Position numbers and translations under genes: made by a program. This document shows positions 6,701 to 49,339 of a stretch of DNA of 64,000 nucleotides, piece after piece. Numbering within the stretch: position 1 is the stretch's first letter; every line of letters starts with the position of its first letter. Source of the stretch: Anthoceros angustus (Eukaryota > Plantae > Anthocerotophyta); contig MU008236.1 in assembly GCA_010909165.1 (NCBI GenBank), forward strand, positions 1-64,000, given 5' to 3'. Below the pieces are notes generated by a model, which was given only the letters and a program-made list of their open reading frames with translations, did not search any database and was not told where the DNA came from.

Positions 6701-6850
6701 TATGAGATTCCACGGAAGGAAGGCCATCACCCATCTTTGCTTTCCTATGATTGGGTTACCCACTCAACAAGAAATCTATGTCGGAATCACTACTAATACC
6801 TCTTTCTGTTACAGGCATAACATGCACTCTGATCTGAAAAAGGAGACTAG

Positions 6851-19987: not shown

Positions 19988-22740
19988 CATGCATTGAGCC
20001 GCTCATCTTTCCCTCCCTAGAGCATCGGATTTTACTCGTCGCTCTTGCTCTAGTTGGGCGTAATGATCCTTTGCCTTCTACCACCATGTATCTTGTTGAT
20101 TGGTGGATCGGAGGGCTCTCTCTTCCAATTGGGACAACTTCCCCTCCAACGTCTTCTCTGTCCGCTTGTGATCCAAGATGTCTTGTTGGAGCTTCTCTAC
20201 GACCTTCTCCAACTTCGTGACCTTCTCGTCAGACTCCACGGCTTCAAGTTGCCATCTGGTCCCTGCTTGTCTCTCTCCGCCTCGGGCCTTGTTCACCTTG
20301 ACCTCCTCTTGACATGCCATGAGAGAGGCTACTAGCTCCCTTGCCTTCTTCAAATCTCCTTGGCCTCCGCCGGCATGGGTAGATCCCCGCACCGCCGCCT
20401 CTCCATCTCCTCGCTGCACACCGGCTTGCCGCTGGCGCCTCCTTGGCGCCTCCGCCCTCCTTCTCCTTCCTACCGTGGGCTGCACGCCACCGACGTGGCA
20501 GCTTGCCAACCGCGATAGGTTGCTTCCCCACCGCCGTAGGTTGCTTGCCTATCACGGTAGGGTGACGCCTCTTGGCCGTGGCCGCCCTACCTACCATGGT
20601 AGGGTGACGGGGTGCACATCCTTCGAGCACCCAAGAAATGGTGGGAACTCCACCCACCCTTGGGATGACCCTCCACAGAGGGGTAGGCTGCACTCCTACC
20701 ATGGTGGTCCCCTCATATACTACCACTTGGCCTTGATTGTACTGCGCATCTCCTGCCTCCCTTGAGGCTCATTTGAGGATATCCTCCACCTCCGGCAATC
20801 CCATATGTATTGCTATCACCTCCTCCTCTCGGTTTCTTGCGATGCTTGAGGATGCTTGTCCTCCCAAGGTCTTCCTTAAAGCCAAAGGCAAGGGCCTTTC
20901 TAAGCTTGGCTTGAGGTGAATAACCTCAAAGGGATGCCAAGAATCTTGAGCTCCTTGCTAGTCAAGAGCCCCTCCGCTTTCCCACCCTAGAGCATCGGAT
21001 TTTACTCGTCGCTCTTGCTCTAGTTGGGCGTAATGATCCTTTGCCTTCTACCACCATGTATCTTGTTGATTGGTGGATCGGAGGGCTCTCTCTTCCAATT
21101 GGGACAACTTCCCCTCCAACGTCTTCTCTGTCCGCTTGTGATCCAAGATGTCTTGTTGGAGCTTCTCTACGACCTTCTCCAACTTCGTGACCTTCTCGTC
21201 AGACTCCACGGCTTCAAGTTGCCATCTGGTCCCTGCTTGTCTCTCCTCTGCCTCTCGGGCCTTGTTCACCTTGACCTCCTCTTGACATGCCATGAGAGAG
21301 GCTACTAGCTCCCTTGCCTTCTTCAAATCTCCTTGGCTGGCCTCCACGGCCTTGTGGATGGGTAGATCCCGCCGCTCCATCTCCTCTTTGCCGCTGCGGC
21401 GGCTGCTGGCGCTCTCTTGGCGCCTCGCCCTCCTTCTCCCTTCCCTACCGTAGGCTGCACCGCCTACCGGCGTGGGCTTGCCAACCGCGATAGGTTGCTT
21501 CCCCACCGCCGTAGGTTGCTTGCCTATCACGGTAGGCTGACTGCCTACGGTCGTGGGCTGCCTACCTACCATGGTAGGGTGACGGGGTGCCTGTCCTTCA
21601 GGCACCCAAGAAATGGTGGGAACTCCACCCACCCTTGGGGATGACCCTCCTACAGTAGTAGGCTGCACTCCTACCATGGTAGGTCCCCCCTCATATACTA
21701 CCACTTGGCCTTGATTGTACTGCATCTCCTGCTCTCCCCCTTGAGGCTCATTTGAGGGGATATCCTCCACCTCCGGCAATCCCATATGTATTGCTATCAC
21801 CTCCTCCTCTCTCGGTTTCGGTGCTGCGATGCTTGAGGATGCTTGTCCTCCCAAGGTCTTCCTTAAAGCCAAAGGCAAGGGCCTTTCTAAGCTTGGCTTG
21901 AGGTGAATAACCTCAAAGGGATGCCAAGAATCTTTGAGCTCCTTGCTAGTCAAGAGCCCCTCCGTTTCCCACAAATGCATCAATTAAGTGCTAAGGTAGC
22001 AAGGCCTCGCACTTCCCTCATTCACAGTGTTGGGCTTGAGGAGCTTCTCCCTATGGTGGATGTAAGCCTCATACATAATTGTTCCCCAATCCGGCTTGGC
22101 TCCTCTCACAATCTTCCACAGGAACTGCAAGAAATTGATGTTAAAATAGGAGCTGCGCTGATAGTTCACCAACCCCAAGACAATCTTGGAGAAGAGCCTC
22201 CACTGGAGCTCCTTGATGTTCTCCGTCTTCCAGCCACTCTTGGTCTTGGCCTTCATCCCCCCATTGACGAGGTCCAATACCTCCTGGGGTATGTCCGTGG
22301 TAGGGGCTCTTTTCCCCCCATTTGACCTCTCAAGAAGAGCAATTCCGGAGCTCTCCTCCTCCGGTCTTCCATACACTTGGCGGATGCTCCTAACCTCCAG
22401 CAGTGGTTCGATCACAGCATTCCTCTCGACAGTGCCAGTGCATCAATTGGTGAAGATTGACATAGCATTCTTCAATTAGCTCCAAATTCGTGTAGGCCCA
22501 TTGGCGACCATACACCCATCCCAACTGTATGTTATCCTCCTCTGCCCACTGCCTGAAATCTACCAAATCCTTGGGGTTCAGCTGCCCCGCGAAGCAAGTG
22601 AATTGCGGCATTTCCAGGCTGCATTCGCCTTATGGTAATCCTCCTGCTATCGGCCTCTTGCCTCTTCCCATGTCGCCGCCTGAGAGTGAGCCCCTGATGG
22701 GCGCCTCCTTCCCCTGTCCCTTCGCTCCTCAAGTCATGGT
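16200..22740 (-). pseudogene. Large accessory ORF ('ORF2') of an LTR retroelement: globular domain, 7-aa QPTxVG repeats and coiled coil; roughly 1000+ aa after collapsing duplications
   Basis: Frame-shifted blocks MPQFTCFAGQ..EECYVNLHQ, LWKIVRGAKPDWGTIMYE, QPT(T/A)VG repeats, a coiled coil and [25 protein letters not shown]; clearly homologous to + strand 35730-36739. Confidence 0.7.
20008..21972. repeat. Tandem duplication 4 (~20008-20977 / 20978-~21972)
   Basis: CCCTAGAGCATCGGATTT at ~20015 and ~20985; microhomology TTTCCC(T/A)C. Confidence 0.9.
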
Positions 22741-22829
22741 TCCTCCTTACTTCCCAAGCGTCTTCAAGGTTGGAAGGAAATTACTTCCCAATTCCAGGCT
22801 GCTTGGGCAGTCTTGGAGCTTCACTCCCA

Positions 22830-25800
22830 GACACTTCTCCTTCTCGCCACTGGCAAACCACCCTGGTGCACAATTACAGCGTTAGTCATGGCTTGCCCTC
22901 CCCAACTGTTGTCCTTCCTCTCGTGGCCCCTTCCTCCAGGGCAAGGCACGCCGACAAGGCAGTCTCGATGCTTCTTCTCGTGCCTTCTCTCGTGCTCTTG
23001 GGTTTCTCTTCCCCTTGCGCCCTCAGTCTCCATAGCTCCTTCAATAAGTTGCGACGCGCCAGGCGCTCCGTCCTCGTGCCTTCTGCCCCTCACAGTGTTG
23101 TCATGAAAGACAAGCAGCACAAGGTGGGACATACTCGGGACAGTCCCAGCGACGAGTATACTCGGGACGGTCCCCAATTCAGCCATACTCGAGATTGTCC
23201 CACCTACAATTAAACAGCGGACAACTCAAGGTAAGAAAGAGTGTTTACTAAATAGAAGGAGCATATGGACAGAATGTTCTAGTATGGATCTTTTTTGCAA
23301 AATATGCTAGTATAGAAATTCTCTTTTTCTTTAAGACAGGTAATCGGCCGGTTATCATCCAAGTACACGTGCTAAATAAGCATGTTAGTTTCAAACCCTA
23401 GGTTAGAGGATGGGTTCACAAAACCCCTCACAGCTAGTTAGGCAGTGCAAAACGTGGGAGAAGCGTGCAGGCGGATCTTTCTTGCGAGAATGATGGAAAT
23501 GGTGGCTGAGGCGAGCGGCGTGAAGATGGCGGCCTTGGAGCAAAGATAAGTGGCAGATTAGGGCTGTTGTATGCAGTTGTTGAAGTTGCACCTGTGAGCG
23601 CTGCGCATAGGGGAGAAATCCCAAGGCCCTTCTTGCAAAAACGCAATCTGTAATGCAATATGGAGTGGAAGCTTAGATTCAGAGCGTGTTTTTGAGCAAC
23701 GGGATGTTGTGTGCAGGCTTGTGTGTGATTTTCCAACTCACAGTCATGCAAACTGCGTGACCCTCTTCAATGCTGGACAGCATGCTGCAAGCAATGCTGC
23801 CTGCTTGTTCACTTCAACAACTACCCTCTTGGGAGCATGGCGCCTAGGGAGAAAGCACAGCAGTGGCGCTGCCAAGCATCTATAGCGAGGCGGCCAGCCT
23901 GAAGACACCCAGCATTGGGTCATGGTAGCTGTTGTGTAAATCTGGACAGGGACAGCAAGCATTCGAGTCTGTCGGCTCCCAGCCAGGACTTGTAGGCAGA
24001 TTGCTGTTGAGGATTACATCTTCTTTTCATTTCAATTCAGGGATTTTATTTGTTACATTCCCATTCAGATCCTTCTTGGTTGACATTTTGGTTGGAAGGC
24101 ACTGATTTCAGTGCATCCTTTTATCAATCTGAGGAGGGATTTGACCAGATTCAGTGTTTCCTTGTTGATTTGAGAGGGGAGCTGACCATACTAGTGCTTG
24201 CTTTCATGGGTGATGCACCCAGATGAGAGTGAGACAAGTCCACGCTACCGCCTTCGAACTCGTGACATTCCCAGCAGGATCACCCGTAAGCGAGTGCAAG
24301 CAAGGAGGAGGTGGGCAACCAGGAGGCAACAGCAGTGGCAGGAGAACATTCAGGACAACATTCAACCTCCAACACTGCAGCCAGCCACAAGTCCTATAGC
24401 TAACTGGTCACCTTTGTCACCAAATTTGTGCGTCAAGCGATTCGACTCGAGAATAGCGGCAAGGACATCCGAGGCAGAGCACCTTTTTCCGGGCAGTCCG
24501 AGCTACAACCGTGCCCGGGCGGTCCAGCCGACAACCATACTCGGGGCAGAACTTAGCTGATTACTCAGGGGATTCAGACACAATGGAGGGAGGAGGACCA
24601 TATCAGCCGAGTGAAATTCAAACATGTTTCAGCATACAATCATCTATATATGTTTGAGTAGTTGGTTGGTATCTAGCCCGGACACTTCTCCTTCCGCCAG
24701 CAAAACCACCGTGCACAATTACTAGTCATGGCTTGCCCTCCCAACGTTGTCCTTCCTCTCGTGGCCCCTTCCTCCAGGGCAAGGCACGCCGACAAGGCAG
24801 TCTCGATGCTTCTTCTCGTGCCTTCTCTCGTGCTCTTGGGTTTCTCTTCCCCTGCGCCTCGGTCTATAGCTCCTTCATTGTTAGTGCGCCAGCGCCTCCG
24901 CCCTCGTGCCTTCGCCTCACGGTTGTCATGAAAGACAAGCAGCACAAGGTGGGACATACTCGGGACAGTCCCAGAAGTATACTCGGGGCGGTCCCAATTC
25001 GACCATACTCGAGATTGTCCCACCTACAAAAATGGACAACCCAAGGTAAGAAAGAGTGTTTACTAAATAGAAGGAGTATATGGAGAATGTTCTAGTATGG
25101 ATCTTTTTGCAAAATATGCTAGTATAGAAATTTCTTTTCTTTAAGACAGGTAATCGGCCGGTTATCATCCAAGTACACGTGCTAAATAAGCATGTTAGTT
25201 TCAAACCCTAGGTTAGAGGATGGGTTCACAAAACCCCACTACAGGCTAGTTAGAGCAGGCTGCAAAAACGTGGGAGAACTGTGCCAAGGGCGGATGCGCT
25301 GCAGAATGATGGAAATGGCTGGGCGCAAACGTGGCTGAGAGGCACGCGTGAAGATGGCGACGCACTGGAGCAAAGATAAGTGGTGACAGTACGTTGTATG
25401 ATTGTTGAAGTTCGAGCTGCGCATGAGAAATCCCAAGGCCCTTCTTGCAAAAACGCAATCAAATGTACAATATGGAGTGGAAGCTTAGATTGAGCGTGTT
25501 TTTGAGCAACGGGATGTTGTGTGCAGGCTTGTGTGTGATTTTCCAACTCACGATCATGCAAGCTGGACCCTCTTCAATGCCGATGGCGATGTCGCAATGC
25601 TTTTGTTCACTTCAACAACTACCTCTTGGGAGCATGGCGCCTAGGGAGAAAGCATGAAAGAAGCGCCGCGCTAAGCATCTATAGCGAGGTGACACCAAGA
25701 CACCAAGATTGGGTCATGGTAGTATGTGTAACCGATGTGACTAAGCATTCGAGTCTGCCGGCTCTACCAGGGACTTGTAGGCGATTCTTGAGGATTACTT

Positions 25801-26415
25801 CTTTTCATTTCAATTCGAGTGGATTTTATTTGTTACATTCCCATTCGATCCTTCTTGGTTGACATTTTGTTGGAAGGCACCGATTTCAAGCATCCTTTTA
25901 TCACGGGAGGAGGATTTGACGATCTGATGTTCCTTGTTGATTTGAGAGGGAGCGGCCATACTAGTGCTTGCTTTCATGGGTGATGCACCGATGAGAGTGA
26001 GACAAGTCCACACGCCGAACTCGTGACATTCCCAGGATCACCGTGGCGAGTGCAAGCAAGGAGGAGGTGGGCAACGAGGAGAACAGCGGTGGCGAGGAGA
26101 ACATTCGTGACAACATTCAACCTCCAACACTGCATGACCACACAGTCCTATAGCTAATCAATACCTTTGTCACACGGCGGAGGCCAGGCCGAGAATAGCG
26201 GCAAGGACATCCGTGAACCCAGAGCACCTTTTTTTCCAGGGGCCCGAGTACCGACGGACAAATCCACGACAACCATACTCGGGGCAGAACTTAGCTGATT
26301 ACTCAGGGGATTCAGACACAATGGAGGGAGGAGGACCATATCAGCCGAGTGAAATTCAAACATGTTTCAGCATACAATCATCTATATATGTTTGAGTAGT
26401 TGGCTGGGTATCTAG
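22830..26415. repeat. Tandem duplication 5 (22830-24680 / 24681-~26415)
   Basis: GACACTTCTCCTTC at 22830 and 24681, with ~1.8 kb colinear. Confidence 0.9.
23099..24085 (+). mobile_element. Probable ~0.95-kb 5' LTR (duplicate 24924-25864)
   Basis: Begins TGTCA and ends TGACA (5-bp inverted termini) in both copies; followed by TTTTG(G)TTGGAAGGCAC and then a gag-like ORF. Confidence 0.6.
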
Positions 26416-26606
26416 CAGATGAGGCTTTGGACCTGTATGAGGTGCACCAGATGGATCTCATGGCAATGGTGGCCACGCCTAATCCTCTTTTCCAGGGTGC
26501 TTTACAATTAGCCTACAACGCTAAACTGGCCACGGCAATCAATACTCACCTCGCGGGCATTGCTCTTTGGGCTCATGACCAGCAGCCACAACCACCTCGG
26601 TTTTAG
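25970..26606 (+). mobile_element. N-terminal part of a gypsy gag-like ORF, truncated
   Basis: NPLFQGALQLAYNAKLA matches NPQFQGVLQLAYNGKLA at ~49350, where the same ORF leads on to zinc knuckles. Confidence 0.55.
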
Positions 26607-27599
26607 CGACTATAGAGAGGTTGGTGGCTATAGTGGGGGTGGATGAGCACATCCTGACAGCTAAACACACCAATCCAGTGGAGGTTGTCATGTTGTTGCT
26701 GTATGGGAAACAGAGCACCTAAGACTCTATGTGGATCTTGTTGGAGCATCACAGGCATAAGCCGATCTTGAAGTGCTTGATGATGTCATGTACATGGCCC
26801 ATGGATGGCCTGACATGACATGTATGCATGTGTATGTATGCATATATGCGTATGGAGATGAAGGATGACATGATGTGTGGACATGTGGCGGTGATGTGTC
26901 ATGGCGCATGCAATCTATATGCATGGTTATGCATGTAAGGCGGTGCTATGGCGCATATATAGATAGATTTATTAGAAAATACATAAAATCATAAATCAAG
27001 GAAAAGGAATAGGCTGTTAAACACATAAAATATTATTATTTGAAGGCCAAGGAAAGTAGGATTATAAAGTGCCCACCATCGATACGGTGGACACTTCATC
27101 GAGAACTCCGGGGTTTTGCCTATATATGTAGGCACCACCATGGATTCTTGGATTGTTGATGTTTGTCTTGTTCTAATAGACAGCCATACTTGTCCTCGTG
27201 TCTTTGTCTCCTAGAGGTTCTTGTGGTTCGTTGCATTACGGTTGGGAGAATTTTCCATCTTGATTTCACCACATCAACAATCCTCTTGTTGGGGACTAAG
27301 ATACTGATCTTGGAGGAGGCGCGCTGGAGATTGGAGGAAGAGGCGGAAGTCGCCCACCATCCAACCTGGAGGCAGTGCGATCCGAGAAGGTTGAGTGTTG
27401 CGAGAACTAGAGATAGGCTGATGTTTTTCGATGGGAATTTCGCCATTGATTACACGGCTTAGGTGTGGTAGTCTCACGATTCGAGTTAGCGTATGCGGAG
27501 AAGAGACGCATACATGAGCCGTTTGTGGATAGGCGGTGGATGTACTTTTACGGCTAGCTGGTTGGGCTAACGGTGGAAACAATTTGCCCTTTGACAACA

Positions 27600-29460
27600 T
27601 CCGTGCGCGTGGTGGGGCATAGGAGAAGTAACCATTGATGGTGTTCACGAGATCGGGGTGGGTGACGAAAGGACACTGCGCCTTCATCGGAGAAGTGCAC
27701 GCGTCTACTACGCCATTCAAGAGGACACGAACAATACGAGACAACGCCGATCACGGAGCAGTTTGGCGATTGGAGTCGCAAGAATGGAGCTTGAGTTCAC
27801 ACCAAGTAAGACGATGTCTTCACAGAAAACATGGAAGCATGTCTCTTGCGATTTCGAGGAGAAGTTTCGTTGGGCAATGGCGGAAAACAAGATGAAATAC
27901 AAGGGAGTTCACTCGGAGGATGGCGTTCATGAAGATGTCATCCTACCTTGCGGTGAGGCTCTAATGTATTACGAGATGAGAAGGCGGGATCCCGAAGGTG
28001 GCAGAGAAGAGAAGCGGTGCATGAGGGCCAAGAGGGCTGGTTCGAGCACCCCCCTCTTCGAGGACAAGCTCGAGCATCCGTGGACTTGATGTTCGCCAAG
28101 TTAACCACCATGTTTCCCCTGACTGGAAAAGATCCGAGGTCGAGGTTTTCTTTCGGGCCTAATGAGACATTGCGTGCATCTTACCTCAGTTGAAGGTTAC
28201 GGTGGAAGACACGGATGTAGAGGCGATGAGGAGGCTGAGATCTTCATGGCGGCTGCGAGACAAAGAAGGAAGGTGATGGACTGCATGGAGCGATGGGAGA
28301 GATATCGGTTGATAGACGCCTCAAATTGCCGAGAAGGTGCTCAAAGGAGATGCGATGGCCAGGCTTACTTGGAGGATCACGGAGTCGTGAAGGGCGCAGC
28401 GGAGAGAGGACACGGAATTCGTGTTTGTTCCAAGGTAGATCGGGAGCAGCACGATCCTCGGGACATGGCAAGCGGCCACATGTGCGAAGGAGAGGCCCTA
28501 ACAATGCAGTCAAGCGGTGTGAAGTGTGGCGGATCTTGGCGCCAAGGCGTTGAATGCGACTACAAGCGGTGGTCGAAGGGCAAGAACTGTAAGTCTTGTG
28601 GCGGATGGGGCACATGGAGGCAGCGTGTTGGGAAGCTCATCCCGAAGCCCAAGCTTGCATCGGGAGAAGGAGAAGGGCAAGGGCCCAAGTCGTAAGGCTC
28701 TCCTCGGGCAAGTGGAGGAGCTCAAGAAGGAGATGGCCAACATGGCCCGGCAGAGCAGCAGGATTTTGTTCTCGACTGATGAAGATGAGGCGTTTGGCAT
28801 GATGGCGGTGCGCAAAAGAAAGAAAGGCATTGTTGACTTTGGTGAAGGCGTCACTGAGTGCGGAACGGAATCGACCAAGATGCCGGAGAGTTTCCGGTCG
28901 AGGAAAACTCCACGAAGGTGTCAAGATCGGTCGAGACATTGAGGCGTTCTGGACAAGGCCATGGAGGTGCGATGAAGTCTTGTGGATCCGGGAGTGAAGG
29001 GCAACAACTTCAAAAACATCATGCGAGAATGGTGGAGAAAGGAGCTTGAATCCAGGATCTCTTCCTAGTATGGCCGGTTTGTGGCGAGCATCGATGCGAG
29101 GGCGAGGTGAAGGAGGTGTTGCCATGATTGATAACACGGATGACCTTTGATGGCTATGCTCCGATGAACGTGCTTGAACCGGAGCGGATCCGATCTGGGG
29201 AACACGGTGCGGGAGGCACTAAAGTTGTCGGACACAAGCTCGTTGCGGCGTGAACATCACCACCTCTGCAGTACCAAGGGCAGTCGGGAATGACGAGGAG
29301 GCCCGTGAAGATTGAATTGAAGCTCGAAGGATGCATCGTTGAAGTGAGATGTTTGGTCACCGGTGCAAAGACATATGATGTCTTCTGGTCGGACGGAACT
29401 CACCCGCCATGGGGTTGATCCCTTGCACCAAGCTTTCTGAGACCATTACGGTGGAGAGGA
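27600..29460 (+). mobile_element. Ty3/gypsy gag (two degenerate zinc knuckles) and aspartic protease, heavily frameshifted
   Basis: KCGGSWRQGVEC and CKSCGGWG knuckles (~28520-28620). VL[D]TGA can be restored with one base at 29170-29186, and the C-terminal VKIELKLEG..VRCLVTGAKTYDV is present. Confidence 0.6.
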
Positions 29461-29789
29461 GATTTCACGCATGTTGCAATTCCTCTAAGGATGAATAGGA
29501 GTGGTGGCAAGAGCAGTGACGAGGATGACGCCATGATTGCCACGGTGCTCGAGTGAGCATCGACATGAGATGTGGGAGGAAAGCAGAGTTATCCTCTCTA
29601 GATGCCAAGCCAAGAGAGCGGAAGGTGTGCTTAAGGTTGTGCTCGATATTTGGATCAAGCGAGGGTTCGAGAACCGGTGAGGATCGACCTGGAATCTCAC
29701 GGACACATGTCCCGAGAGGTCGATCCGGTATGAGGCCCGCCAAGTCGGAGATCGGCGACGATGCTCTGAACGATGGAAGGTGGTCAAGG

Positions 29790-30600
29790 CATCCATTTGT
29801 TGGAGCTCGCCGAAATCGCTGGCACAGGCGGTGTTGCGTGTGGCGATGGCAATATACTGCGTGGAAAAGGATGAGAAGATTCCGCTAGGGTCGAATCTCG
29901 GTTCCTGGCGGTATCCAACACTCGAGCGAGAAGGAAGCGATTCGAGGCTGCGAGCTGCCTGACGTGAACTGGTTGGGAAGCGGGGTTGTCAAGCCGGTGG
30001 ATATCGATCGCGGGATGGGAATGCAAGACATTTTCGGCGGTGGCAAAGGTGAAGGCGTTTTGTTGGCGGAGCTCGCGCGAATCACGCGAGAAGTCCGCGA
30101 ATCCACGATGTTGGTACATTCTGAGAATGTGTGCGACCATGGACAAAGCGTCCGGTAGGGCCCTATGAAGAGATTCGGGCGTGGTTCGGCAATGAGTTGA
30201 TCATGGGCCGCGGTGCGTGTGGCTCATATGCACACAGAGCGATTCGGACAAATGTGGTGGAGGTGCTCGACGACAGAATTTGACAACTCAAGCGGAAGGT
30301 CGTGGATGATATCCTAGAGTTGGGAAGGTGCTCACAGTGAAGAGGATGGACAAGTTGCCATTTTACCACCGTGGTAGGGGAAGCCGAAGGGCATGGCCAA
30401 CTCGTGAGCACACCGCAATCTTATGCCTTGACGGGAGGAGATGGTGTGATTCGGATTTGAAGGGAATGAGCTTGGAGCTCAATGTTGAGGAACGCGAGCA
30501 AGCGATGGGCTTTGCCAAGAAGGACACTCGGACCATGGGCATCAGATCGGATGCTGGATGGCATTTGACATTTGATGCGAGGTGGTGTAAGCCACTTGGC
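29790..30600 (+). pseudogene. C5-cytosine DNA methyltransferase domain inside gypsy pol (frameshifted)
   Basis: Ordered motifs: IHLLEL (I-like, 29791), YCVEKD (II, 29855), LP.DV (III), IAGWEC[QD]FSA.GKG.G (IV, Cys codon 30022-30024), HSENV (VI, 30123-30131), CGSYAHR..RTN (VIII, 30218-30238), ELNVEEREQAMGF..DT (IX, 30475-30513) and a weak G.AFD (X-like). Confidence 0.82.
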
Positions 30601-30719
30601 GTTCCAACTTGCAGCGAAGCGAAAGCCTTCCTCCAACTACAGGATAAAGAGGTTCCTAAGGAAGATGAGTGCGAGAGATTCAGATGGCGGTGGATCTTGA
30701 ATCGTCTACCAAGAGTGTG

Positions 30720-32100
30720 ACGAAAGAGGTTCATGTATGGCACATTGCAGAAGATGTGAGCCCGGAAGATAAGCAGAAAATCATCAACATGCTTGAGAAA
30801 AACAAGGGTGCTTTTGCATTCAGTTGGAAGGAGCTGGGTAGGTATGAGAAGATCAAGTTCAAAGTAGTGACGACTCATGAAGAGCCCGTCTTCAGAAGGA
30901 GGCATCGCCTCAGTTCAGCAGAATGGGAGATTGTTGACAAACGCTGTCAAGACTTGTTCGAAGCAGGGTTGATAAGAAAATCAAGCTCTCAATATGCTGC
31001 TGCGACTGTCCTACCGCTCAAAAAGGATGAGAACGGTGAATGGAAGGACAGGAGGATGTGTGGCGACTACCGACCTCTAAACGAGGTGACTCCTATGGAG
31101 CGGTACCCCATGCCTACTCCAGACGAGATTTTCGATGCCATAGGTAAGGCAAAGTTCTTTACCAGCTTGGACTTCCGCTCAGGCTTCAACCAAATTGTGA
31201 TTGAAGAGCAGGACAAGTGCAAGACCCTTGGGGAAGGACCAGCTTTGGGAGTGGGAGACAATGCCGTTTGGGCTGAAAATGCTATATATTTCCAAAGAAT
31301 TGCGGATCTGGGCTGCAGGTGCCATTTGTGCGTTGTTACATAGATGATATCCGGTCTTTGTGAGACAATCGAAGAACATATGGAGCATCTAGAGATATTG
31401 CTCAGTCAAGCTCGGGTTTGAAAGCTCATCCTAAGAAATGCAAGTTTGCTTTCCAGGATCAGTATGGGGCATGAGATAGTACCGAGGCATCATGCCTCTC
31501 GGTGGCTAAGGTGCGTGATGCAAATGCCTAGACCAAAGGATGTAGCTCTTAGAGCCTTCACAGGTTTGGTGAACTATTACAGGAGGTTTATGAAGGACCT
31601 CGGTTCACATGTAAACCTGTATGAGCTGAAGAAAGACATTGCATGGAAATGGGACCAAGACCAGGAGTTGGCTTGGCAAGATCTTCGGGACCAGTTGGCA
31701 GAGAAGCCTATGCTGGCCAGGCCGAATTTTGATCACCCTTTCACTCTGTACACATCGGAGCACTGAGGCGGTGTTGTCACAACATGGTGCGATGGTGTTG
31801 AGCGAGTGATAGCTTATGCAAGCCGATCTAACAACTCCAAGTGAACTACCTCATATGAGGGAGAGTGTCTTGTCGCATGGGCGCTCGCATTTCGTGGTCT
31901 ATCTGTATGGAAGGCGTTAATCGGTCACAGATCACCAGCCACTTCATTGGCTGATGACCAACATGAAGTTGAGTGGTAAGCTAGCGGTGGCTCTCGAGTA
32001 CGATATGGAGATCGTGCACAGGGCAGGCAAGGTGCATCACAATGCAGATGGGCTAAGCAGAAACCCGCTGGAGAGTGACAAGGATGTCACAGAGCTCGAT
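30720..32100 (+). mobile_element. Ty3/gypsy reverse transcriptase and RNase H; integrase absent
   Basis: GLIRKSSSQYAAATVLP.K..RMCGDYRPLNEVT..YPMP..FFTSLDFRSGFNQI, YIDD at ~31338, IAYASRS, TDHQPL and EIVHRAGKVHHNADGLSR. Confidence 0.95.
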
Positions 32101-32149
32101 GTGATGAGGGGCACGATGGTGCACCCAGCTTCATGGCACTCATGGCCGT

Positions 32150-33240
32150 GATAGATGATCATGAAGAAGGACATGTGCCGACAGAGTCCGCTGTGATGTT
32201 TGAGACATCCTCAAGCCTGATTCAAGAAGGCAAGGTTCGAATGATCAAGGTGCTTGGCTAAACTCAGAAGGCGTGTGGCCAGATACTCCTAGGACTGGTA
32301 GTTCTCACCCTGCACAGCAGCCATGGAGGAGGTCTCGCACAAGCGAGGTGGAGATACTGGAATCTGTGCCCTCTAGGGTGTGCTATGACTGCCGTCAATT
32401 CCAGCAGAGTTTGCAGGACAGGATGGGACCCCAATTTGTGGATGACGAAGATGCGGGTAAGTGGAGCATCTTCTACTCCCGCAAGTATGACCCGGAACGA
32501 GGTATTCCACCTGCAAGTTATGACGAGCTTCACATCTTCCTACTGTATGTTGAGGAGCATCATGACAGCTGTAGGGTGGAGCATTATCCCACAGAACATC
32601 GGGATTTATTTGAGCTCCAGGGGTCCTGGCGTTGCCTCGGACTGGACAAGCTATCTGAGAGGGTGCATGGAGGAATTTCAGCATCACTTCCAAATGCATC
32701 AATGGTTTGATGGGATGAGGTTGCAGTGAGTTCGTTGGTGGGAGACACATAGCCGCTTGATTTTTCTCAAGGAGTGGTTTCGAGTTTTCCACCATCCGCG
32801 ACGGGGGCATCATGTGGTGGCCTCGGCAGTTTTACATTCTGACCAACAAGCTGAGGACCCCTCATGTTGATCAACGTGCTTGGACTCGAGAGGAGAAGGA
32901 CGCGTTCAACTGTCTCAAGAGACTCGCCAGCCCGCACATCTACACTTCCTGTAAGTTACCGTTTTTCAATTACCCAACACAGGAAGCTTACAATCGGGAC
33001 ATGGATGCTGGACAGGATGGCATACATCCTTTTTTCAGCCAGTTCGATGCACAGAAGAGCTTTGTGGAAGAACAGGTTGACAATCTATCTGGATTCAAGC
33101 TGCCCAGCGAGATTACTATTAAGCAGGAGGCACAAGAAGACCCATCAGATGATGAGGATCTCGAAGATGACGCCATTCCTCCTCCTCGGCGTAACCACCG
33201 CTGTTGGACAAGCTACGCTCGCGGTGGGGACGCTGAGTAG
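32150..33240 (+). other. Unassigned frameshifted ORF (3' part duplicated at 34466-35200)
   Basis: Protein-like blocks CYDCRQF, DWTSYLRGCMEEFQHHF, WDEVASEF..FLKEWFRVFHHL and an acidic tail; family not recognised. Confidence 0.35.
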
Positions 33241-36200
33241 TTGTTTGTTTTCTAGGCCAAGATGGTCTAAATAACTTTGTGGGAAACCGGTGGCTAGGCC
33301 TCCAAGTTTCAATTCATGGTCCGGTCCGCCTCTCTTAGGCAAACCCGTCTCTTTAGTTTTGCCCTTGGCCATAGGCCAAGGACAAATTAAGAGCTAGGAT
33401 TATTGCTCGGCCAGGCCAAGGACGCCACAGCAGTGATGCTTAGAAAGGACTTAGCTTGTGGCGAGGCTAGGCAGGCATCATATGCGGCTGGCTGACAAGG
33501 TGTTCATGAGGATTACGGAAAAAGCCTTTGAAGACTCTCGAAAAATTGCAAAGCTTCGTCCTTTGCATGAAGAAAGGAGAGCAGTCACGAGATGACTTTT
33601 GAAGGTTACTGTTGCGAAGGCAGGCATCTTGACGGATCAAGCCGTGGAGAAATTTGGTTGGAGGGGACTCCTTGTTCCATTTTCAGCTCACTTCAGGTGG
33701 ATAAGTATGGTGACAGCTACACCTTGGAACAAGTTCATGAAGAGGTAGAGCGCATAGAGATTGCCCCATGACCAAGGGCAAGGAGGTGGCTACCAAGGAT
33801 GGGACGTCCACCAAGGGAGGTGGCACGGGGAAGGATAAAAACTCTAAGGCGGAGGTGGGGAAATGGAAAGTCCATGACTCACACGTGCTATGGAGGCCAA
33901 ATGTCCTCGGGATCTTGCAGGACTTTAGGCCACAGGCGTGAGAGAGCATCCAGGAGTGGGTGTTATGGGAGGCTGTCTTACACCAACTTTGGAATTAATT
34001 GAAGAATGTTTTGCTAACTGCACCAAGCGAGGAGGAAGAAACAAGAGGTCCCAACGGCAAATAAAGGGTAGCACAAGGGCAAGACACATGAGGCGAGTCA
34101 TGGCCACACAGTCATGAAAATCCGTGACTTGGAAATGGAGTTGGGGAAATTCCGGAGGTTGGAGCGAAAGGAGGAAGAGGCTGGAAGAGCGGACACATTT
34201 TGTCAGAAGATTGGAGATGGAGCGAGAATGCGCAGGAGCATGCACAACTCCCTAGGAGGATAGGGGAGTTAGAAAAGGAGAGCGAGAAGAGGAAGACCGT
34301 CCGGAAAGTGCGGCATGTTGGTGGTAAGGGAGCAGAGATTTTGGGCTAATTATGCCCTATAGGAGAAGTTGATCCACCAACTGCAGACGAAAAGAGTGGA
34401 GAATGTGGCTCTTCACGTCAGGGTGGGGAGTTAACCTTGGGCGAGATGCTTACAAAAGTAAGTGTGAGCTTCACATCTTCCTACGTATGTTGAGGAGCAT
34501 CATGGCGGTGTAGGGTGGAGCATTATCCTGAGGAACATCGGGATTTATTTGAGCTCAGTGGGGTCTGGCGTTTGCCACGGACTGGACAAGCTATCTGAGA
34601 GGGTGCATGGAGGAATTTCAGCATCACTTCCAAATGCATCAATGGTTTGATGGGATGAGGTTGCCAGTGAGTTCGTTGTTGGGGAGACACATACCCTCGT
34701 CTTGATTTTTCTCAAGGAGTGGTTTCGAGTTTTCCACCATCTGCGGGGCCAGGCATCATGTGGTAGGGTGGCCTCGGCGGTTTACATTCGACCAACAAGT
34801 GAGGACCCCTCATGTTGATCAACGTGCTTGGACTCGAGAGGAGAAGGCGTTCAAGCTATCTCGAGAGACTACTTGACCCATCTACACTTCACAGCAAATT
34901 CTGGTTTTCAATTACCCAACACGAGAAGCTTACAATCGGGACATGGATCTTTGGGCGAGGATGGCATACATCCTTTTTCAGCCGATTCGATGCGGAGCTT
35001 TGTGGAAGAAACGGGTTGACAATCTATCTGGATTCAAAAGGCGCGAGATTACTATTAAGCGGGAGGCCTGAAGACCCATCGGATGATGAGGATCTCGAAG
35101 ATGGCGCCATTCCTCCTCCTCGCGGAGACCACCGTCGGTGTTGGACAAGCTACGTTCTCGTGGTGGGGGCGTTGGTGAGTAGTTGTTTGTTTTTCTAGGC
35201 CAAGATGGTCTAAACAACTTTGTGGGAAACCAGGTGGCTAGGCCTCCAAGTTTCCAGGGGCTTCATGTCCTGGGTGCTCGCTCTTAGGCAAACCCGGTCT
35301 CTTTTTGTGCCCTTGGCCATAGGCCAGGACAAATTAAGCTAGGATTATTGCTCTGGGCCAAGGCCAGGGCGCCTGAGCGGTGATGCTTAGAAAGGACTTA
35401 GCTTTGTGGCGAGGCTAGGCATGCACTATGCTCACAGGCCGCGACAAGGTGTTCATGAGGATTCTGGAAAAAGCCTTTCCGCTGAAGACTCTCGAAAAAA
35501 TTGCAAAGCTTGCGTCCTTTGCAAGAAAGGAGAGCAGTCACGGATGACTTTTGAAGATTCTGAGTTCTTGAGAAAGGCGAGGCATCTTGACGGATCAAGC
35601 CGTGGAGAAATTTCCAGCGTTGGAGGGGACTCCTTGTTCCATTTTCAGCTCATCACTTCTACGGTGGATAAGTATGGTGGCACTACACCTTGAGAACAAG
35701 TTCATGAAGGTAGGCGCATAGATTGCCCCATGACCAAGGGCAAGGAGGTGGCTACCAAGGATGGGACGTCCACCAAGGGAGGTGGCACAGGGAAGGATAA
35801 AAACTCTAAGGCAGGAGGTGCAGGCTTCGGGAAATGGAAAGTCGACATGCCACAGCTCACGTGCTATGGAGGCCAAATGTCCTCCAGGGATCTTGCAGAC
35901 TTTAGGCCCTGGGCAGCAGAGGAGAACATCCAGCTGGAGTGGGTGTTATGGGAGGCACTGGTCTTACACCAACCTGGAATTAATTGAAGAATGTTTTGCT
36001 AACCTGCACCAAACAGAGGAAGAAACAAGACAGGTCCCAACAGCAAATAAGGGTAGCACAAGGGCAAGTAGAAGCACATGAGCAGGTCATGGCCACACAA
36101 GCTGTGAAAATCCGTGACTTGGAAATGGAGTTGGGGGAAATTCGCCGGAGGTTGGAACGAAAGGAGGAAGAGCTGGAAGAACGGACACATTTTGTCCGAA

Positions 36201-36476
36201 GATTGGAGATGGAGCGAGAAGTACAGCAGCAGGAGCATGCACAACTCCCTAGGAGGATAGGGGAGTTAGAAAAGGAGAGAGCAGAAGAGGAAGACCGTCA
36301 TGAGGCGGTTGTGCAGCACATGTTGGTGGTAAGGGAGCAGAGATTTTGGGCTAATTATGCCCTATAGGAGAAGTTGATCCACCAACTGCAGACGAAAAGA
36401 GTGGAGAATGTGGCTCTTCACGTCAGGGTAGGGGAGTTAACCTTGGAGCGAGATGCTTACAAAAGTAAGTGTGAGC
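32525..36476. repeat. Tandem duplication 6 (32525-34465 / 34466-~36476)
   Basis: GAGCTTCACATCTTCCTAC at 32525 and 34466; microhomology GAGC. Confidence 0.9.
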
Positions 36477-36739
36477 AGGGAGTGTGGCTTGAGGATTATA
36501 AAGAATTGGAGATGGCACAACAACGATTTGCAGCCCATCTTCACAACAAGGTACTCAAGGCAACTAACGAATTATTGCGGGTTGCTGAGAAAAGAATGTT
36601 GGGACCTCATGATGATGATAGGGAGGCCCTTATGCAGGTCCAACCAAGAGCCTTAGACTTGGAGAATGCCCCAAGCGACATGGATGAAGGAACTTCGCAA
36701 CGGGGGAAACAAGTGGAGCGGCTCCACTTTCCTGTCTAA
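35430..36739 (+). pseudogene. gag fragment followed directly by an internally deleted ORF2
   Basis: FMRILEKAFPLKTLEKIAKLASF matches FMAILEKAFPLKTHEKIAELASF at ~49565. It is followed by MTKGKE..MPQLTCYGGQ..NLHQ joined straight to the coiled coil and ENVALHVRVGELTL. Confidence 0.65.
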
Positions 36740-39310
36740 AAAACCAGGCCCTAACCCTTCTCTTCTTTTTTAATAAAATCTCCACTTTCCTCTCTAAAAA
36801 ACCAGGCCCTAATAGGACATATCACTATCTTTGATAATTGTAATGGTGACCACGTCGGGGATTGCATTTTCCTCTAATTAATTATCAGTAGATGTCTGTC
36901 GGAATTGGGGAAAACCCCTCCGCCCTCTGGGGTTAACTCGCGTGTGTCTGTAGAAGGTCGAGCGCGCCGGGAGACGGTTTGCGGTACTTAGGGCAAAGTT
37001 TTTTACAATCGGCCGTATCAACAATTGGTACAATTGGTGTCCGACCAGTATCTTCACCGTGAATACCCTACGAGGCCGTTACAAATCCGGAGCTCTGCGG
37101 CCGCCGTTACAAATCTGGAGCTCTGCGGCCGCCGACTAGAATCTATCTATAGGCACGGCGCTGGCAGAGTGCACTCCATACTGGCAGGCTTTGGAGGGGC
37201 TACCTACGGGCTTTGTAACGTCGGGGATGGCGCGTTGAGCTTGTAACTGCGCTTCCCAAGGTGCAACCTTGGGGGAGAATACCCTGTTGCGGTTTCATTT
37301 GTTGAGCACAAACACCTTCGCGTTTGAGGCGTACGCAATGCCTAGGAAGCGCAAAACTCCGAAAGACGGTGAAGAGCAGGCACAGGGTCTTCAGGTCACT
37401 TCACAGCCCTCGGCAAATGTGCCACCGAGGGAGGCTGTCGAAATACTTGAGATGGGGCGGATGAATAGGGGGCGATTCGATCTGGGGCCGGTGGCGGTCC
37501 AGTACAGGGAAGGGAGCACCTCCTTCTGTAGGTCCCGCTGGAGTGCCTAGCCTGGGATATTACCCGCCGCAGAACTCTCAAGAAGCAGTTTCCATTTCTG
37601 GGACAGCCTGCACTGCTGATCGAGACTTGCTGAAGGCGCCGAAGGCTTTGCAGCCTGTTGCTAAAGCTTCCACTGGACCTCCTTTTGAATCGATGCCTGA
37701 CTCTGTCTCTCGCGTGGAACCCTCAACATCGCCAGCAAGCAGCTTTGTGAATGCTGGGGCTACAATTGCTAGGCGCATGAATGACTTGCGGCTTCAGGAG
37801 CGTCAAGAAGCATCCGCTCCATCTTCGCCCACTCATGTGCAGGCCCCACCTGTGTCCAGCAAGTCACTGAGGTTTCCTTTGCGGCCAGGAAAGGGCCGCT
37901 CAGGTATCAGTGTTGTCAAGGCGAATCATTTCTTTGCGGAGTTGCCTGATAAAGAATGTTGGGACCTCATGATGATGATAGGGAGGCCCTTATGCAGGTC
38001 CAACCAAGAGCCTTAGACTTGGAGAATGCCCCAAGCGACATGGATGAAGGAACTTCGCAACGGGGGAAACAAGTGGAGCGGCTCCACTTTCCTGTCTAAA
38101 AAACCAGGCCCTAACCCTTCTCTTCTTTTTTAATAAAATCTCCACTTTCCTCTCTAAAAAACCAGGCCCTAATAGGACATATCACTATCTTTGATAATTG
38201 TAATGGTGACCACGTCGGGGATTGCATTTTCCTCTAATTAATTATCAGTAGATGTCTGTCGGAATTGGGAAAACCCTCCGCCCTCTGGGGTTAACTCGCG
38301 TGTGTCTGTAGAAGGTCGAGCGCGCCGGGAGACAGTTTGCGGTACTTAGGGCAAAGTTTTTACAATCGGCCGTATCAACAATTGGTACAATTGGTGTCCG
38401 ACCAATATCTTCACCGTGAATACCCTACGAGGCCGTTACAAATCCGGAGCTCTGCGGCCGCCGTTACAAATCTGGAGCTCTGCGGCCGCCGACTAGAATC
38501 TATCTATAGGCACGGCGCTGGCAGAGTGCACTCCATACTGGCAGGCTTTGGAGGGCTACCTACGGGCTTTGTAACGTCAGGGATGGCGCGTTGAGCTTGT
38601 AACTGCGCTTCCCAAGGTGCAACCTTGGGGAGAATACCTGTTGCGGTTTCATTTGTTGAGCACAAACACCTTCGCGTTTGAGGCGTACGCAATGCCTAGG
38701 AAGCGCAAAACTCCGAAAGACGGTGAAGAGCAGGCACAGGGTCTTCAGGTCACTTCACAGCCCTCGGCAAATGTGCCACCGAGGGAGGCTGTCGAAATAC
38801 TTGAGATGGGGCGGATGAATAGGGGGGCGATTCGATCTGGGGCCGGTGGCGGTCCAGTACAGGGAAGGGGCGCACCTCCTTCTGTAGGTCCCGCTGGAGT
38901 GCCTAGCCTGGGATATTACCCGCCGCAGAACTCTCAAGAAGCAGTTTCCATTTCTGGGACAGCCTGCACTGCTGATCGAGACTTGCTGAAGGCGCCGAAG
39001 GCTTTGCAGCCTGTTGCTAAAGCTTCCACTGGACCTCCTTTTGAATCGATGCCTGACTCTGTCTCTCGCGTGAACCCTCAACATCGCCAGCAAGCAGCTT
39101 TGTGAATGCTGGGGCTACAGTGCTAGGCGCATGAATGACTTGCGGCTTCAGGAGCGTCAGAAGCATCCGCTCCATCTTCGCCCACTCATGTGCAGGCCCC
39201 ACCTGTGTCCAGCAAGTCACTGAGGTTTCCTTTGCGGCCAGGAAAGGGCCGCTCAGGTATCAAGTGTGTTGTCAAGGCGAATCATTTCTTTGCGGAGTTG
39301 CCTGATAAAG
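36590..39310. repeat. Tandem duplication 7 (~36590-37950 / 37951-~39310)
   Basis: AGO exon 1 is cut at GTTGCCTGATAAAGA and jumps back to GTTGCTGAGAAAAGA (36581-36595). Confidence 0.92.
37074..37150 (+). promoter_or_regulatory. Putative AGO proximal promoter: 28-bp direct repeat and TATA-like element
   Basis: GCCGTTACAAAT(C/T)(C/T)GGAGCTCTGCGGCC occurs twice, then TCTATCTATAGG about 190 bp before the ATG. Function is inferred from position only. Confidence 0.35.
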
Positions 39311-42300
39311 ATCTGCACCAGTATGATGTAAGGACGCTTTTTCATGACTCTACTTTGTGTCATCGAATCTATCGGACCTTCGGAACCCATTTTCTCTGAC
39401 TGTTCACCTGTCCAGGTTTCGATTACGCCGGAGGTGACATCCCGTGGGGTGAATAGGGCTGTAATGAAGGTTCTAGTCAGCACCCACAAGGATTCGGCTC
39501 TGGGTCAGCGTTTACCTGTATATGACGGACGGAAAAGCCTTTACACAGCTGGCCCTCTACCATTCCAATCAAGGAATTTCACGTGAACCTCCTAGATGAA
39601 GAGGATGGTACTAATACTCAAAGGTTTGTATCTATTGGTTGAAGCTCTCTTGTTTCCTTTGTGCTAGAAGGTTGTCATAGCTTCTATCCTGTCTTTGCAG
39701 AAGGGAGAGGTCGTTTAGGGTTGTGCTGAAGCTCGCAGCCAGGGCAGATCTGCACCATTTAGGGCAATTCCTGCAAGGTAGACAAGCAGATGCACCACAG
39801 GAAGCTTTGCAGGTGCTCGACATAGTTTTGCGAGAACTTCCCACTCATCGGTATGCCTTTTTCCTGTGATGACGTTAATTCGTTCATCTGCAGCAGTGTT
39901 AGGCCCAGTCTAAGCTGCCTCACCCATTTTGTCTGACTGTAGATACTCCCCAGTTGGCCGATCATTCTATTCACCACATTTAGGACATCGACAACCTTTG
40001 GGAGATGGTCTGGAAAGTTGGCGTGGTTTTTATCAAAGCATTCGGCCTACTCAGATGGGTTTGTCTCTCAATATTGGTGAGGAATATCTTCAGCCTTGCT
40101 TTTGCGAGTATTTTATATTGTGCCTTCGTCTTGTGAGGCATGCTATCCTTCCCTTCGGTTGTTAGCTGCAGAGTGAAGGCAACCAGGTGTTAAAATCAAC
40201 AATTGGTACAATTGGTGTCCGACCAATATCTTCACCGTGAATACCCTACGAGGCCGTTACAAATCCGGAGCTCTGCGGCCGCCGTTACAAATCTGGAGCT
40301 CTGCGGCCGCCGACTAGAATCTATCTATAGGCACGGCGCTGGCAGAGTGCACTCCATACTGGCAGGCTTTGGAGGGCTACCTACGGGCTTTGTAACGTCA
40401 GGGGATGGCGCGTTGAGCTTGTAACTGCGCTTCCCAAGGTGCAACCTTGGGGAGAATACTGTTGCGGTTTCATTTGTTGAGCACAAACACCTTCGCGTTT
40501 GAGGCGTACGCAATGCCTAGGAAGCGCAAAACTCCGAAAGACGGTGAAGAGCAGGCACAGGGTCTTCAGGTCACTTCACAGCCCTCGGCAAATGTGCCAC
40601 CGAGGGAGGCTGTCGAAATACTTGAGATGGGGCGGATGAATAGGGGGCGATTCGATCTGGGGCCGGTGGCGGTCCAGTACAGGGAAGGGCGCACCTCCTT
40701 CTAGGTCCCGCTGGAGTGCCTAGCCTGGGATATTACCCGCCGCAGAACTCTCAAGAAGCAGTTTCCATTTCTGGGACAGCCTGCACTGCTGATCGAGACT
40801 TGCTGAAGGCGCCGAAGGCTTTGCAGCCTGTTGCTAAAGCTTCCACTGGACCTCCTTTTGAATCGATGCCTGACTCTGTCTCTCGCGGAACCCTCAACAT
40901 CGCCAGCAAGCAGCTTTGTGAATGCTGGGGCTACAGTGCTAGGCGCATGAATGACTTGCGGCTTCAGGAGCGTCAGAAGCATCCGCTCCATCTTCGCCCA
41001 CTCATGTGCAGGCCCCACCTGTGTCCAGCAAGTCACTGAGGTTTCCTTTGCGGCCAGGAAAGGGCCGCTCAGGTATCAAGTGTGTTGTCAAGGCGAATCA
41101 TTTCTTTGCGGAGTTGCCTGATAAAGATCTGCACCAGTATGATGTAAGGACGCTTTTTCATGACTCTACTTTGTGTCATCGAATCTATCGGACCTTCGGA
41201 ACCCATTTTCTCTGACTGTTCACCTGTCCAGGTTTCGATTACGCCGGAGGTGACATCCCGTGGGGTGAATAGGGCTGTAATGAAGGTTCTAGTCAGCACC
41301 CACAAGGATTCGGCTCTGGGTCAGCGTTTACCTGTATATGACGGACGGAAAAGCCTTTACACAGCTGGCCCTCTACCATTCCAATCGAAGGAATTTCACG
41401 TGAACCTCCTAGATGAAGAGGATGGTACTAATACTCAAAGGTTTGTATCTATTGGTTGAAGCTCTCTTGTTTCCTTTGTGCTAGAAGGTTGTCATAGCTT
41501 CTATCCTGTCTTTTGCAGAAGGGAGAGGTCGTTTAGGGTTGTGCTGAAGCTCGCAGCCAGGGCAGATCTGCACCATTTAGGGCAATTCCTGCAAGGTAGA
41601 CAAGCAGATGCACCACAGGAAGCTTTGCAGGTGCTCGACATAGTTTTGCGAGAACTTCCCACTCATCGGTATGCCTTTTTCCTGTGATGACGTTAATTCG
41701 TTCATCTGCAGCAGTGTTAGGCCCAGTCTAAGCTGCCTCACCCATTTTGTCTGACTGTAGATACTCCCCAGTTGGCCGATCATTCTATTCACCACATTTA
41801 GGACATCGACAACCTTTGGGAGATGGTCTGGAAAGTTGGCGTGGTTTTATCAAAGCATTCGCCTACTCAGATGGGTTTGTCTCTCAATATTGGTGAGGAA
41901 TATCTTCAGCCTTGCTTTTGCGAGTATTTTATATTGTGCCTTCGTCTTGTGAGGCATGCTATCCTTCCCTTCGGTTGTTAGCTGCAGAGTGAAGGCAACC
42001 AGGTGTTAAAATCAACTTTTTGGTGGTGCAGACATGTCGTCTACTGCCTTCATTGAGCCACTGCCTATTACTGATTTCGTGGCTCAGATTCTGAATCGGG
42101 ATTTGTCAAGACCTTTGACGGATGCAGACCGGATTAAGGTATCATAGCTCTGCGTGCCAGGTGTTTTAAAGTTTGACCCCGTCCTTGAAATTCCTCTTCT
42201 ATATTATTTTAGGAGGACATCATAGTATGCAGTTCTGCCATAGCGCCTACCAGCTTGGGCTGAAGCCTTGGATGGCAGCTTGTCCTTATCACCCTCATAC

Positions 42301-48956: not shown

Positions 48957-49339
48957 AATGTGTCTCGGGTGATTTCTCATGAATTACAGGAAGGGATGAC
49001 AGCTTTATCTGCTAGGTTGAAGCCTTTGTCAGTCGTCATGGACTTGTGCCCTGGACTTTTTTATGTTGAGTGTTGAAGCAAGCGTAGCATATCCAAATAT
49101 GTTTTTTTGACGTTGAGAGACCCTATTCCTAGAAATTTGTTTTGTCATGATCGTGAAATTACGGAAGTCGCCATCCTCCAATGCGTCTGCGTCTGTAAAG
49201 CACTATTTCTTTAAGGAAGGGCTTTTTCCCAAAAAATTGAAACAATTGCTTGTCATGAAAAAACACCCAAATGCTGGCAAACTATGTTCCAAGCGGCATT
49301 GTATGATCTTCCTCTCCCCTTGCTTCCTCTACTTACGCA

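Follow-up and report, generated by a model that had tools for sequence, protein, structure and literature searches.

Organization of the Element

The window (the whole stretch of DNA analyzed, 64,000 nucleotides) contains on its plus strand what is, with little room for doubt, a Ty3/gypsy retrotransposon carrying a DNMT3-type DNA methyltransferase (DNMT) between protease and reverse transcriptase (RT). The order gag-protease-DNMT-RT-RNase H, proposed in an earlier note made from the sequence alone, was confirmed by profile matches in the window. At the 5′ side lies a candidate long terminal repeat (LTR) of 499 bases with TGATG...CATCA ends (26778–27276) and a TATA-like tract near 27120. No partner copy was found in the 64-kb window, and we infer the candidate LTR without a pair; contigs from two public runs (X2 and X3) cover 26802–27202 at about twice the depth of the element body. 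A CCHC-type Gag zinc knuckle with one frame break was located at 28588–28652 (19.3 bits against a profile of family knuckles, a score reached by none of 60 shuffles, maximum 15.7), and the capsid part upstream of it was marginal (3.0 bits, reached by 1 of 30 shuffles). The knuckle is followed by a broken aspartic protease of the family type at 29178–29399 (23.7 bits; shuffle maximum 5.3, 0 of 100 reaching the score), and tblastn from the protease region of relatives matched 29284–29520. The earlier note had read a protease DTG at about 29176; the protease itself stands by profile, but its catalytic Asp is unreadable in frame in this copy.

Downstream of the DNMT region, the Ty3/gypsy RT and RNase H span 30708–32091 (442.8 bits, 14 short-step frame breaks), where RVT_1 and RT_RNaseH_2 also match, below the gathering score. 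The recognizable element ends within 32092–32330 on the plus strand, where integrase profiles were negative and other repeat sequence follows. Integrase profiles remained at or below 4.5 bits across 26–38 kb, and the window's sole integrase match lies within its initial 9 kb, on the minus strand. A search of the window recovered no 3′ LTR and no tRNA gene, and no primer-binding site of the element was identified. Because of its many frame breaks and its lack of integrase and 3′ repeat, the window copy is broken and 3′-truncated, and as assembled it cannot act.

Several other repeats were observed in the window. Capsid-like frames related to the family gag occur at 49117–49809 (with a frame at 49555–49644 scoring 30.2 bits), 35452–35673 and 26355–26528; with no pol nearby, these are possibly non-autonomous relatives of the element. 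Two related repeats with coiled-coil frames (15250–22500, minus strand, and 35984–36739, plus strand) matched no specific Pfam family. Copia-like gag, integrase and RT fragments, recognized by eye, and an unrelated gypsy-type integrase fragment are distributed over 4989–6726, 60622–63054 and 4360–5002 (all minus strand) and 52795–54950 (plus strand).

The Methyltransferase Domain

The whole DNMT region extends over about 29785–30570 on the plus strand. Its N-terminal part (29785–29985) contains motif I-, II- and III-like sequences in the expected place and order, namely IHLLEL (29791–29808), YCVEKD (29855–29872) and LPDV (29955–29966). Singly these are weak, and only slightly above chance (of 200 shuffles, 3, 4, 10 and 16 equal or exceed the four scores obtained). 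The DNMT3-type C5 cytosine methyltransferase core (29986–30543) was recognized by profile and contains motif IV (IAGWEC, 30007–30024, with the catalytic Cys codon TGC at 30022–30024), motif VI (ENV, 30123–30131), motif VIII (GSYAHR, 30221–30238, with AHR at 30230–30238), a target-recognition T at about 30394–30427 and motif IX (EEREQAMGF, 30487–30513). All C5-methyltransferase motifs quoted in the earlier note, as well as the YIDD of the RT (31337–31348), were found where it had placed them, distributed over three reading frames; the second Arg of motif VIII falls across a frame break. A profile search of the region brought up no motif X in this copy.

None of five single-frame pieces of the region matched PF00145 in Pfam, and natural relatives were therefore sought. 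Since tblastn with an intact relative (P0004) gave only E 0.14 on the window DNMT region, a profile was needed for detection. We used a profile of 43 natural relatives in a frameshift-aware scan with an X placed at each break. The interval 29986–30543 scored 38.9 bits at a break penalty of −8 and 51.6 bits at −6, compared with a mean of −0.8 and a maximum of 4.1 in 40 shuffles, −2.5 in the reversed sequence and a maximum of 5.6 bits among the remaining tiles of both strands of the window. The score sinks to 16–18 bits once frame breaks cost 12–16 bits. A profile built from DNMTs of the same architecture gave 68.6 bits against 4.4 in controls at a penalty of −4, and two unbroken single-frame pieces each match, by themselves, a family alignment of 60 rows (hhalign P 1.7e-4 and 4.6e-4). 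The HMM check suggested in the earlier note thus came out positive with the family profile after frame repair (39–52 bits) and negative with PF00145 on single-frame pieces. PF00145 was passed by relatives (P0004, P0036, P0237, P0231 and P0377) and by pieces of the metagenome loci L053 and L091. As judged from its sequence, the window domain is a genuine C5 cytosine methyltransferase with catalytic Cys, Glu and Arg in order.

Frame Breaks and Assembly

The element is present in three public runs (X1, X2 and X3) from two studies. No RNA run is listed as containing it, which carries no information about expression. Contigs of X2/X3, at a depth of 400–600, differ from the window by 3–5% in letters, and over the protease and DNMT they are longer by 11–16%. 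Gaps between such contigs and the window number 70 over 571 bases, 37 over 272 and 29 over 181, and 30746–31200 has no gap at all. As the letter differences are few and the extra letters many, the frame breaks of the window copy are likely to be largely assembly error, a share of true decay left apart. The deep X2/X3 contigs trace the window from gag through protease toward motif I, and from motif IX into the RT. The motif IX-to-RT bridge has a side of 65–85 letters; the short side of the protease-to-motif-I bridge is 25 letters, below the 31-letter minimum of the bridging search, and this counts against the explanation that we favor below. Run X1 has no cover over 29881–30732, a gap that is uninformative given its short contigs and the indel-rich target. 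Other placed contigs have a depth of about 10. This suggests that a close relative of the host (organism B) carries a young family of many copies, although contig depth is not equivalent to copy number.

Head-to-tail duplications of 1–2.4 kb with gap-dominated differences were observed at 6836–11251, 15246–19967, 19996–21972, 22826–26416, 32525–36476 and 36575–46832, and a deep X2/X3 contig joins 33189 to 35128, skipping one duplication period. These duplications, including repeated exon blocks of the host gene described below, are likely assembly stutter. In the indel-rich part (27600–30700), CAG/CTG triplets are depleted (0.46/0.60) and CGA/TCG enriched (1.42/1.39), a skew that is absent from the clean RT frame at 30708–31217. 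The skew would fit long-read errors of the kind that methylation may cause at CHG sites, hinting that the window copy is methylated in its host; no paper on such errors was found in the literature searched. CpG observed/expected ratios of 0.94–1.05 in the gag-protease-DNMT part show no depletion, and sequence errors spoil this measure. Because the base composition of the region is distorted, CpG depletion was unusable as a test of self-methylation and was dropped.

Host of the Element

Outside the element, an AGO1-type gene lies at 37338–48953 on the plus strand, its exon blocks occurring in two to three copies. Its product is identical to that of the hornwort Nothoceros aenigmaticus (P0375) at 873 of 940 covered residues (92.9%), compared with 76.6–83.5% identity to 18 other AGO1 proteins, mostly from named liverworts, mosses, ferns, lycophytes and seed plants. 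The last exon is 93% identical to a EukProt protein of N. aenigmaticus, the next best match being at most 80%. This supports the suggestion of the earlier note that the host is a land plant. Given the gap between Nothoceros and the other AGO1 proteins, the host of the element is very probably a hornwort, not necessarily Nothoceros.

Run X1 contains a piece of the AGO1 5′ region (1,188 bases with 5 differing letters) together with many element pieces, 113 of 379 placed contigs being at least 99% alike. No contig in the runs bridges the element and the AGO1 gene. The nearest named RT is a protein of the liverwort Calypogeia fissa (CAM6125100.1; 54% identity over 158 columns), and repeats on either flank are similar to gag of the element's own lineage.

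A Family of Methyltransferase-Bearing Gypsy Elements

The open RT frame at 30669–31340 was used as a protein query (781 candidate longer proteins) and yielded six matches. Three have a DNMT upstream in the same protein, namely P0001 (in part), P0003 from Closterium and P0004, the last with the order knuckle-protease-DNMT-RT; another has the DNMT in its cluster-mate P0012, and the remaining two begin at the RT. The DNMT of P0004 as query led to 39 proteins, and a profile search of 1.84 billion representatives gave 472 proteins at E ≤ 1e-30, of which 150 are listed. In total, at least 234 proteins with the DNMT domain were collected, and 162 were retained after short and near-identical ones were dropped. 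Most relatives were found through the DNMT, the RT-frame protein search and an RT metagenome search being the only ones not driven by it, so sister elements that lack the DNMT would be missed.

Intact relatives from Closterium and metagenomes carry protease, DNMT, RT, RNase H and integrase in one frame, a fusion that the frame breaks obscure in the window copy. In a quick tree the window RT falls inside a 23-row clade (SH-aLRT 100), in which 19 of the 22 other rows have the DNMT before the RT and 3 begin at the RT. Two architectures are present in the family. In one (Closterium, other records and the window) the DNMT precedes the RT, whereas in the other it follows RNase H and precedes integrase, and a PHD finger is found at the C terminus, as in the chlorophyte Hariotina reticulata and other records. 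Examples of the latter with catalytic residues kept are P0041, P0068, P0238 and L088:699–6800, and this lineage was not seen in the available text of the literature on retrotransposon DNMTs covered here. The two architectures separate in the RT tree (quick method, with one long-branch row outside), and in the DNMT tree (FastTree) they form the two sides of one branch with support 99 (91 versus 32 rows). The window DNMT itself is basal in the family tree on a branch of 1.35, an uninformative placement that counts against the favored explanation. In one subgroup with Pro before the catalytic Cys (P0022–P0033, P0050 and P0231), the DNMT ends a gag-protease frame and RT is absent from the same protein; in this branch, Pol may be divided downstream of the DNMT.

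A metagenome scan recovered at least 48 loci, mostly AT-rich decayed copies, with the order protease-DNMT-RT-RNase H-integrase. At least 10 of these group with the Calypogeia RT (support 98); the window RT lies beside this group with weak support (83), and the Closterium RT rows form a separate branch. When the window RT was compared with metagenome contigs, 334 pattern matches were obtained and none was confirmed. LTR pairs were seen in the related loci L055, L073 and L076. Split direct repeats of the form A-coding-B-A-B were found, among the matches listed, in 3 of 22 related loci of at least 10 kb (L073:2471–13505, L076:2227–12508 and L080:113–11764), around integrase-bearing gypsy elements; the L080 repeats end differently and could be part of another element. 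A viral donor of the DNMT was sought and none was found: 52 viral loci gave weak generic methylase matches (best E 5e-8, 23–46% over short stretches), and 11 viral rows used as outgroup stayed outside the family.

The domain thus belongs to pol and did not arrive as an unrelated insertion, as the earlier note had held, for relatives keep it at the same place in one frame. Although land plants do possess a host DNMT3 gene (PMC6453930) from which a pseudogene could have entered an ordinary gypsy element between protease and RT, such an origin is scarcely credible here: the shared position and open frame in relatives contradict it, family-specific motifs beyond the catalytic core match the window, and the deep X2/X3 contigs follow the region. 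It is also very unlikely that the element comes from an algal epiphyte or a contaminant whose DNA was merged into an assembly rich in errors. The assembly does stutter and is rich in indels, the named DNMT-bearing proteins are from Closterium and Hariotina, and no record bridges the element to AGO1. However, the nearest named RT is that of a liverwort, with Closterium on a separate branch, run X1 holds both the 1,188-base AGO1 piece and many element pieces, and the flanking repeats are like gag of the element's lineage.

Catalytic Residues and DNMT3 Affinity

To our knowledge, a Pro directly before the catalytic Cys of motif IV is near-universal in C5 cytosine methyltransferases. The earlier note remarked on Glu at this position in the window (E-C instead of P-C), a reading that holds, but this is no peculiarity of the copy. 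Among the 162 non-redundant family domains, the preceding residue is Glu in 85 (for example in the intact relatives P0036 and P0377) and Pro in 67 (for example in P0034), and E-C is, across the family alignment, a common family state and not damage of the window copy. Exchanges between Glu and Pro occurred 17 times on the DNMT tree, at least 4 of them forced by strong branches. The catalytic Cys of motif IV and the Glu of motif VI are kept in 162 of 162 domains and each Arg of motif VIII in 161; motifs I and X are also kept in relatives.

By sequence, the best PDB matches of the family are DNMT3C/A/B (E 5.6e-10), followed by M.HaeIII (4.2e-7), DNMT2 (0.039) and DRM2 (0.06). The predicted fold of an E-C relative, P0237 (pLDDT 82.5), matches DNMT3A with E 7.8e-19 and a TM score of 0.82 by target. 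The DNMT3 affinity and unrearranged motif order are seen in the sequences of relatives and the P0237 model; the affinity is drawn from these PDB sequence and structure matches.

Potential Role of the Methyltransferase

We lean toward the view that the locus is a broken hornwort gypsy copy from a family whose DNMT3-type enzyme is active and methylates the element's own cDNA. Taken separately, activity of the enzyme in intact family members is a fairly confident prediction, and the choice of the element's own cDNA as target is evenly poised. By analogy with general gypsy biology, the DNMT would be made as part of the Gag-Pol polyprotein and packaged in the particle, where it may stay on or beside the RT, whether or not the protease frees it, and would meet the cDNA while the RT makes it. 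Using SAM, it could then leave 5mC on the cDNA, most likely in CG context, either ahead of integration or during it. Fresh insertions would already bear a mark resembling that of host heterochromatin, and this mark might lower their expression or keep them from being recognized as foreign DNA that lacks methylation.

Self-methylation of cDNA was put forward by de Mendoza et al. (2018; PMC5890265) as a hypothesis and not as a result. The available text of that paper reports de novo CG methylation in yeast by SymbioDIRS-Dnmt3 domains and no signal from KnitGypsy-Dnmt3, the latter an outcome that its authors call inconclusive; human DNMT3B was likewise negative in that test. The earlier note had taken CG methylation as established for retrotransposon DNMTs of both dinoflagellates and charophytes, which is borne out for the dinoflagellate SymbioDIRS-Dnmt3 and not for the charophyte KnitGypsy-Dnmt3 (PMC5890265). 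As KnitGypsy-Dnmt3 is the only tested member of the gypsy lineage, its negative result counts against the explanation favored here (PMC5890265). So do the Glu of motif IV and, in the window copy, the lack of a PF00145 match in single frames, the missing motif X and the weakness of motifs I–III.

That same result, together with the replacement of the motif IV Pro by Glu in 85 of 162 family domains, could point to a DNMT kept with little or no catalysis, as a module binding nucleic acid or SAM or as a decoy for partners of host DNMT3/DRM, E-C then marking a weakened enzyme. We consider this unlikely, since retention of Cys, Glu and both Arg in 161–162 of 162 domains is unlike a pseudo-enzyme, the 17 Glu/Pro changes (at least 4 forced) fit a tolerated position, and human DNMT3B failed in the same yeast test (PMC5890265). 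The enzyme could also be active on the element's RNA, its integration site or host chromatin instead of cDNA. De Mendoza et al. raise RNA methylation for LINE-borne DNMTs and also effects on chromatin at the insertion site (PMC5890265), and the sister architecture sets the DNMT beside integrase and a PHD finger. This alternative is quite improbable, as the closest solved relatives are DNA enzymes (DNMT3, with DNMT2 only at E 0.039) and in the architecture to which the window belongs the DNMT is fused to the RT, the site of cDNA synthesis.

If the favored explanation of an active enzyme methylating its own cDNA is true, land plants harbor retrotransposons encoding an enzyme that writes the very mark by which these elements are silenced. 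In Anthoceros agrestis, CG and CHG methylation lies mainly on transposons and there is almost no CHH methylation (PMC10952607). Hornworts thus make the question testable, because de novo methylation by an enzyme of the element would be conspicuous against this background. The common E-C variant in turn tests how far the P-C motif can change. The locus belongs to a published kind of element, whose range it likely extends to hornworts, from a poor copy. A broader scenario is offered only tentatively. DNMT3-bearing gypsy elements may be an old green-plant lineage that reached land when the first embryophytes did and that persists in hornworts, liverworts and mosses; the host's close relative would carry a young family of many copies. 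The E-C enzyme would be active and write 5mC on the element's own cDNA, and the DNMT clade would have moved once between the protease-DNMT-RT order of streptophytes and the RNase H-DNMT-integrase-PHD order of chlorophytes such as Hariotina. Presence in all three bryophyte lines, if true, would point to inheritance from an algal ancestor.

Comparison with Known Systems

The published retrotransposon-borne DNMT that we set beside the window element is KnitGypsy-Dnmt3 of Klebsormidium nitens (de Mendoza et al., 2018; PMC5890265), a comparison made by description; no named Klebsormidium sequence was among our protein-search matches. Both are LTR gypsy elements with a Dnmt3-related domain in Pol and a streptophyte host (PMC5890265). 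The KnitGypsy-Dnmt3 domain is intronless, and the figure legends describe split A-coding-B-A-B repeats (PMC5890265), an arrangement shared with the three related metagenome loci L073, L076 and L080. Unlike KnitGypsy-Dnmt3, the window element likely has a hornwort, and thus a land plant, as host, and its copy lacks integrase and 3′ repeats. Later papers, in their available text, place the KnitGypsy-type DNMT in streptophytes with land plants unnamed, and no retrotransposon DNMT of a land plant appears in the available portions of PMC12344493, PMC6453930, PMC10952607, PMC9033089, PMC12513842 and bioRxiv 10.64898/2026.05.21.726589. No report of a DNMT-bearing gypsy from hornworts or other land plants was found in the literature searched, which covered freely accessible papers.

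SymbioDIRS-Dnmt3 of Symbiodinium resembles the window element in having a Dnmt3-type domain in Pol beside the RT, and two domain orders coexist there too (PMC5890265). Unlike the window element, it is a DIRS element with a tyrosine recombinase, from a dinoflagellate, and represents an independent capture (PMC5890265). The EpiLTRs of Cymbomonas and Euglena are likewise LTR elements with a cytosine methyltransferase but, unlike the window element, also encode DAM and a chromodomain; their DNMT groups as sister of DNMT4, and the authors set it apart from the streptophyte Gypsy-DNMT3 (bioRxiv 10.64898/2026.05.21.726589). With host DNMT3 (human DNMT3A/B and mouse DNMT3C structures, and moss DNMT3, PMC6453930) the family shares fold and motif order. 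It differs in its identity of about 20% in structural alignment, in a motif IV of the form W-E/P-C-Q, in a longer target-recognition region and in the lack of PWWP/ADD, and it is embedded in a polyprotein.
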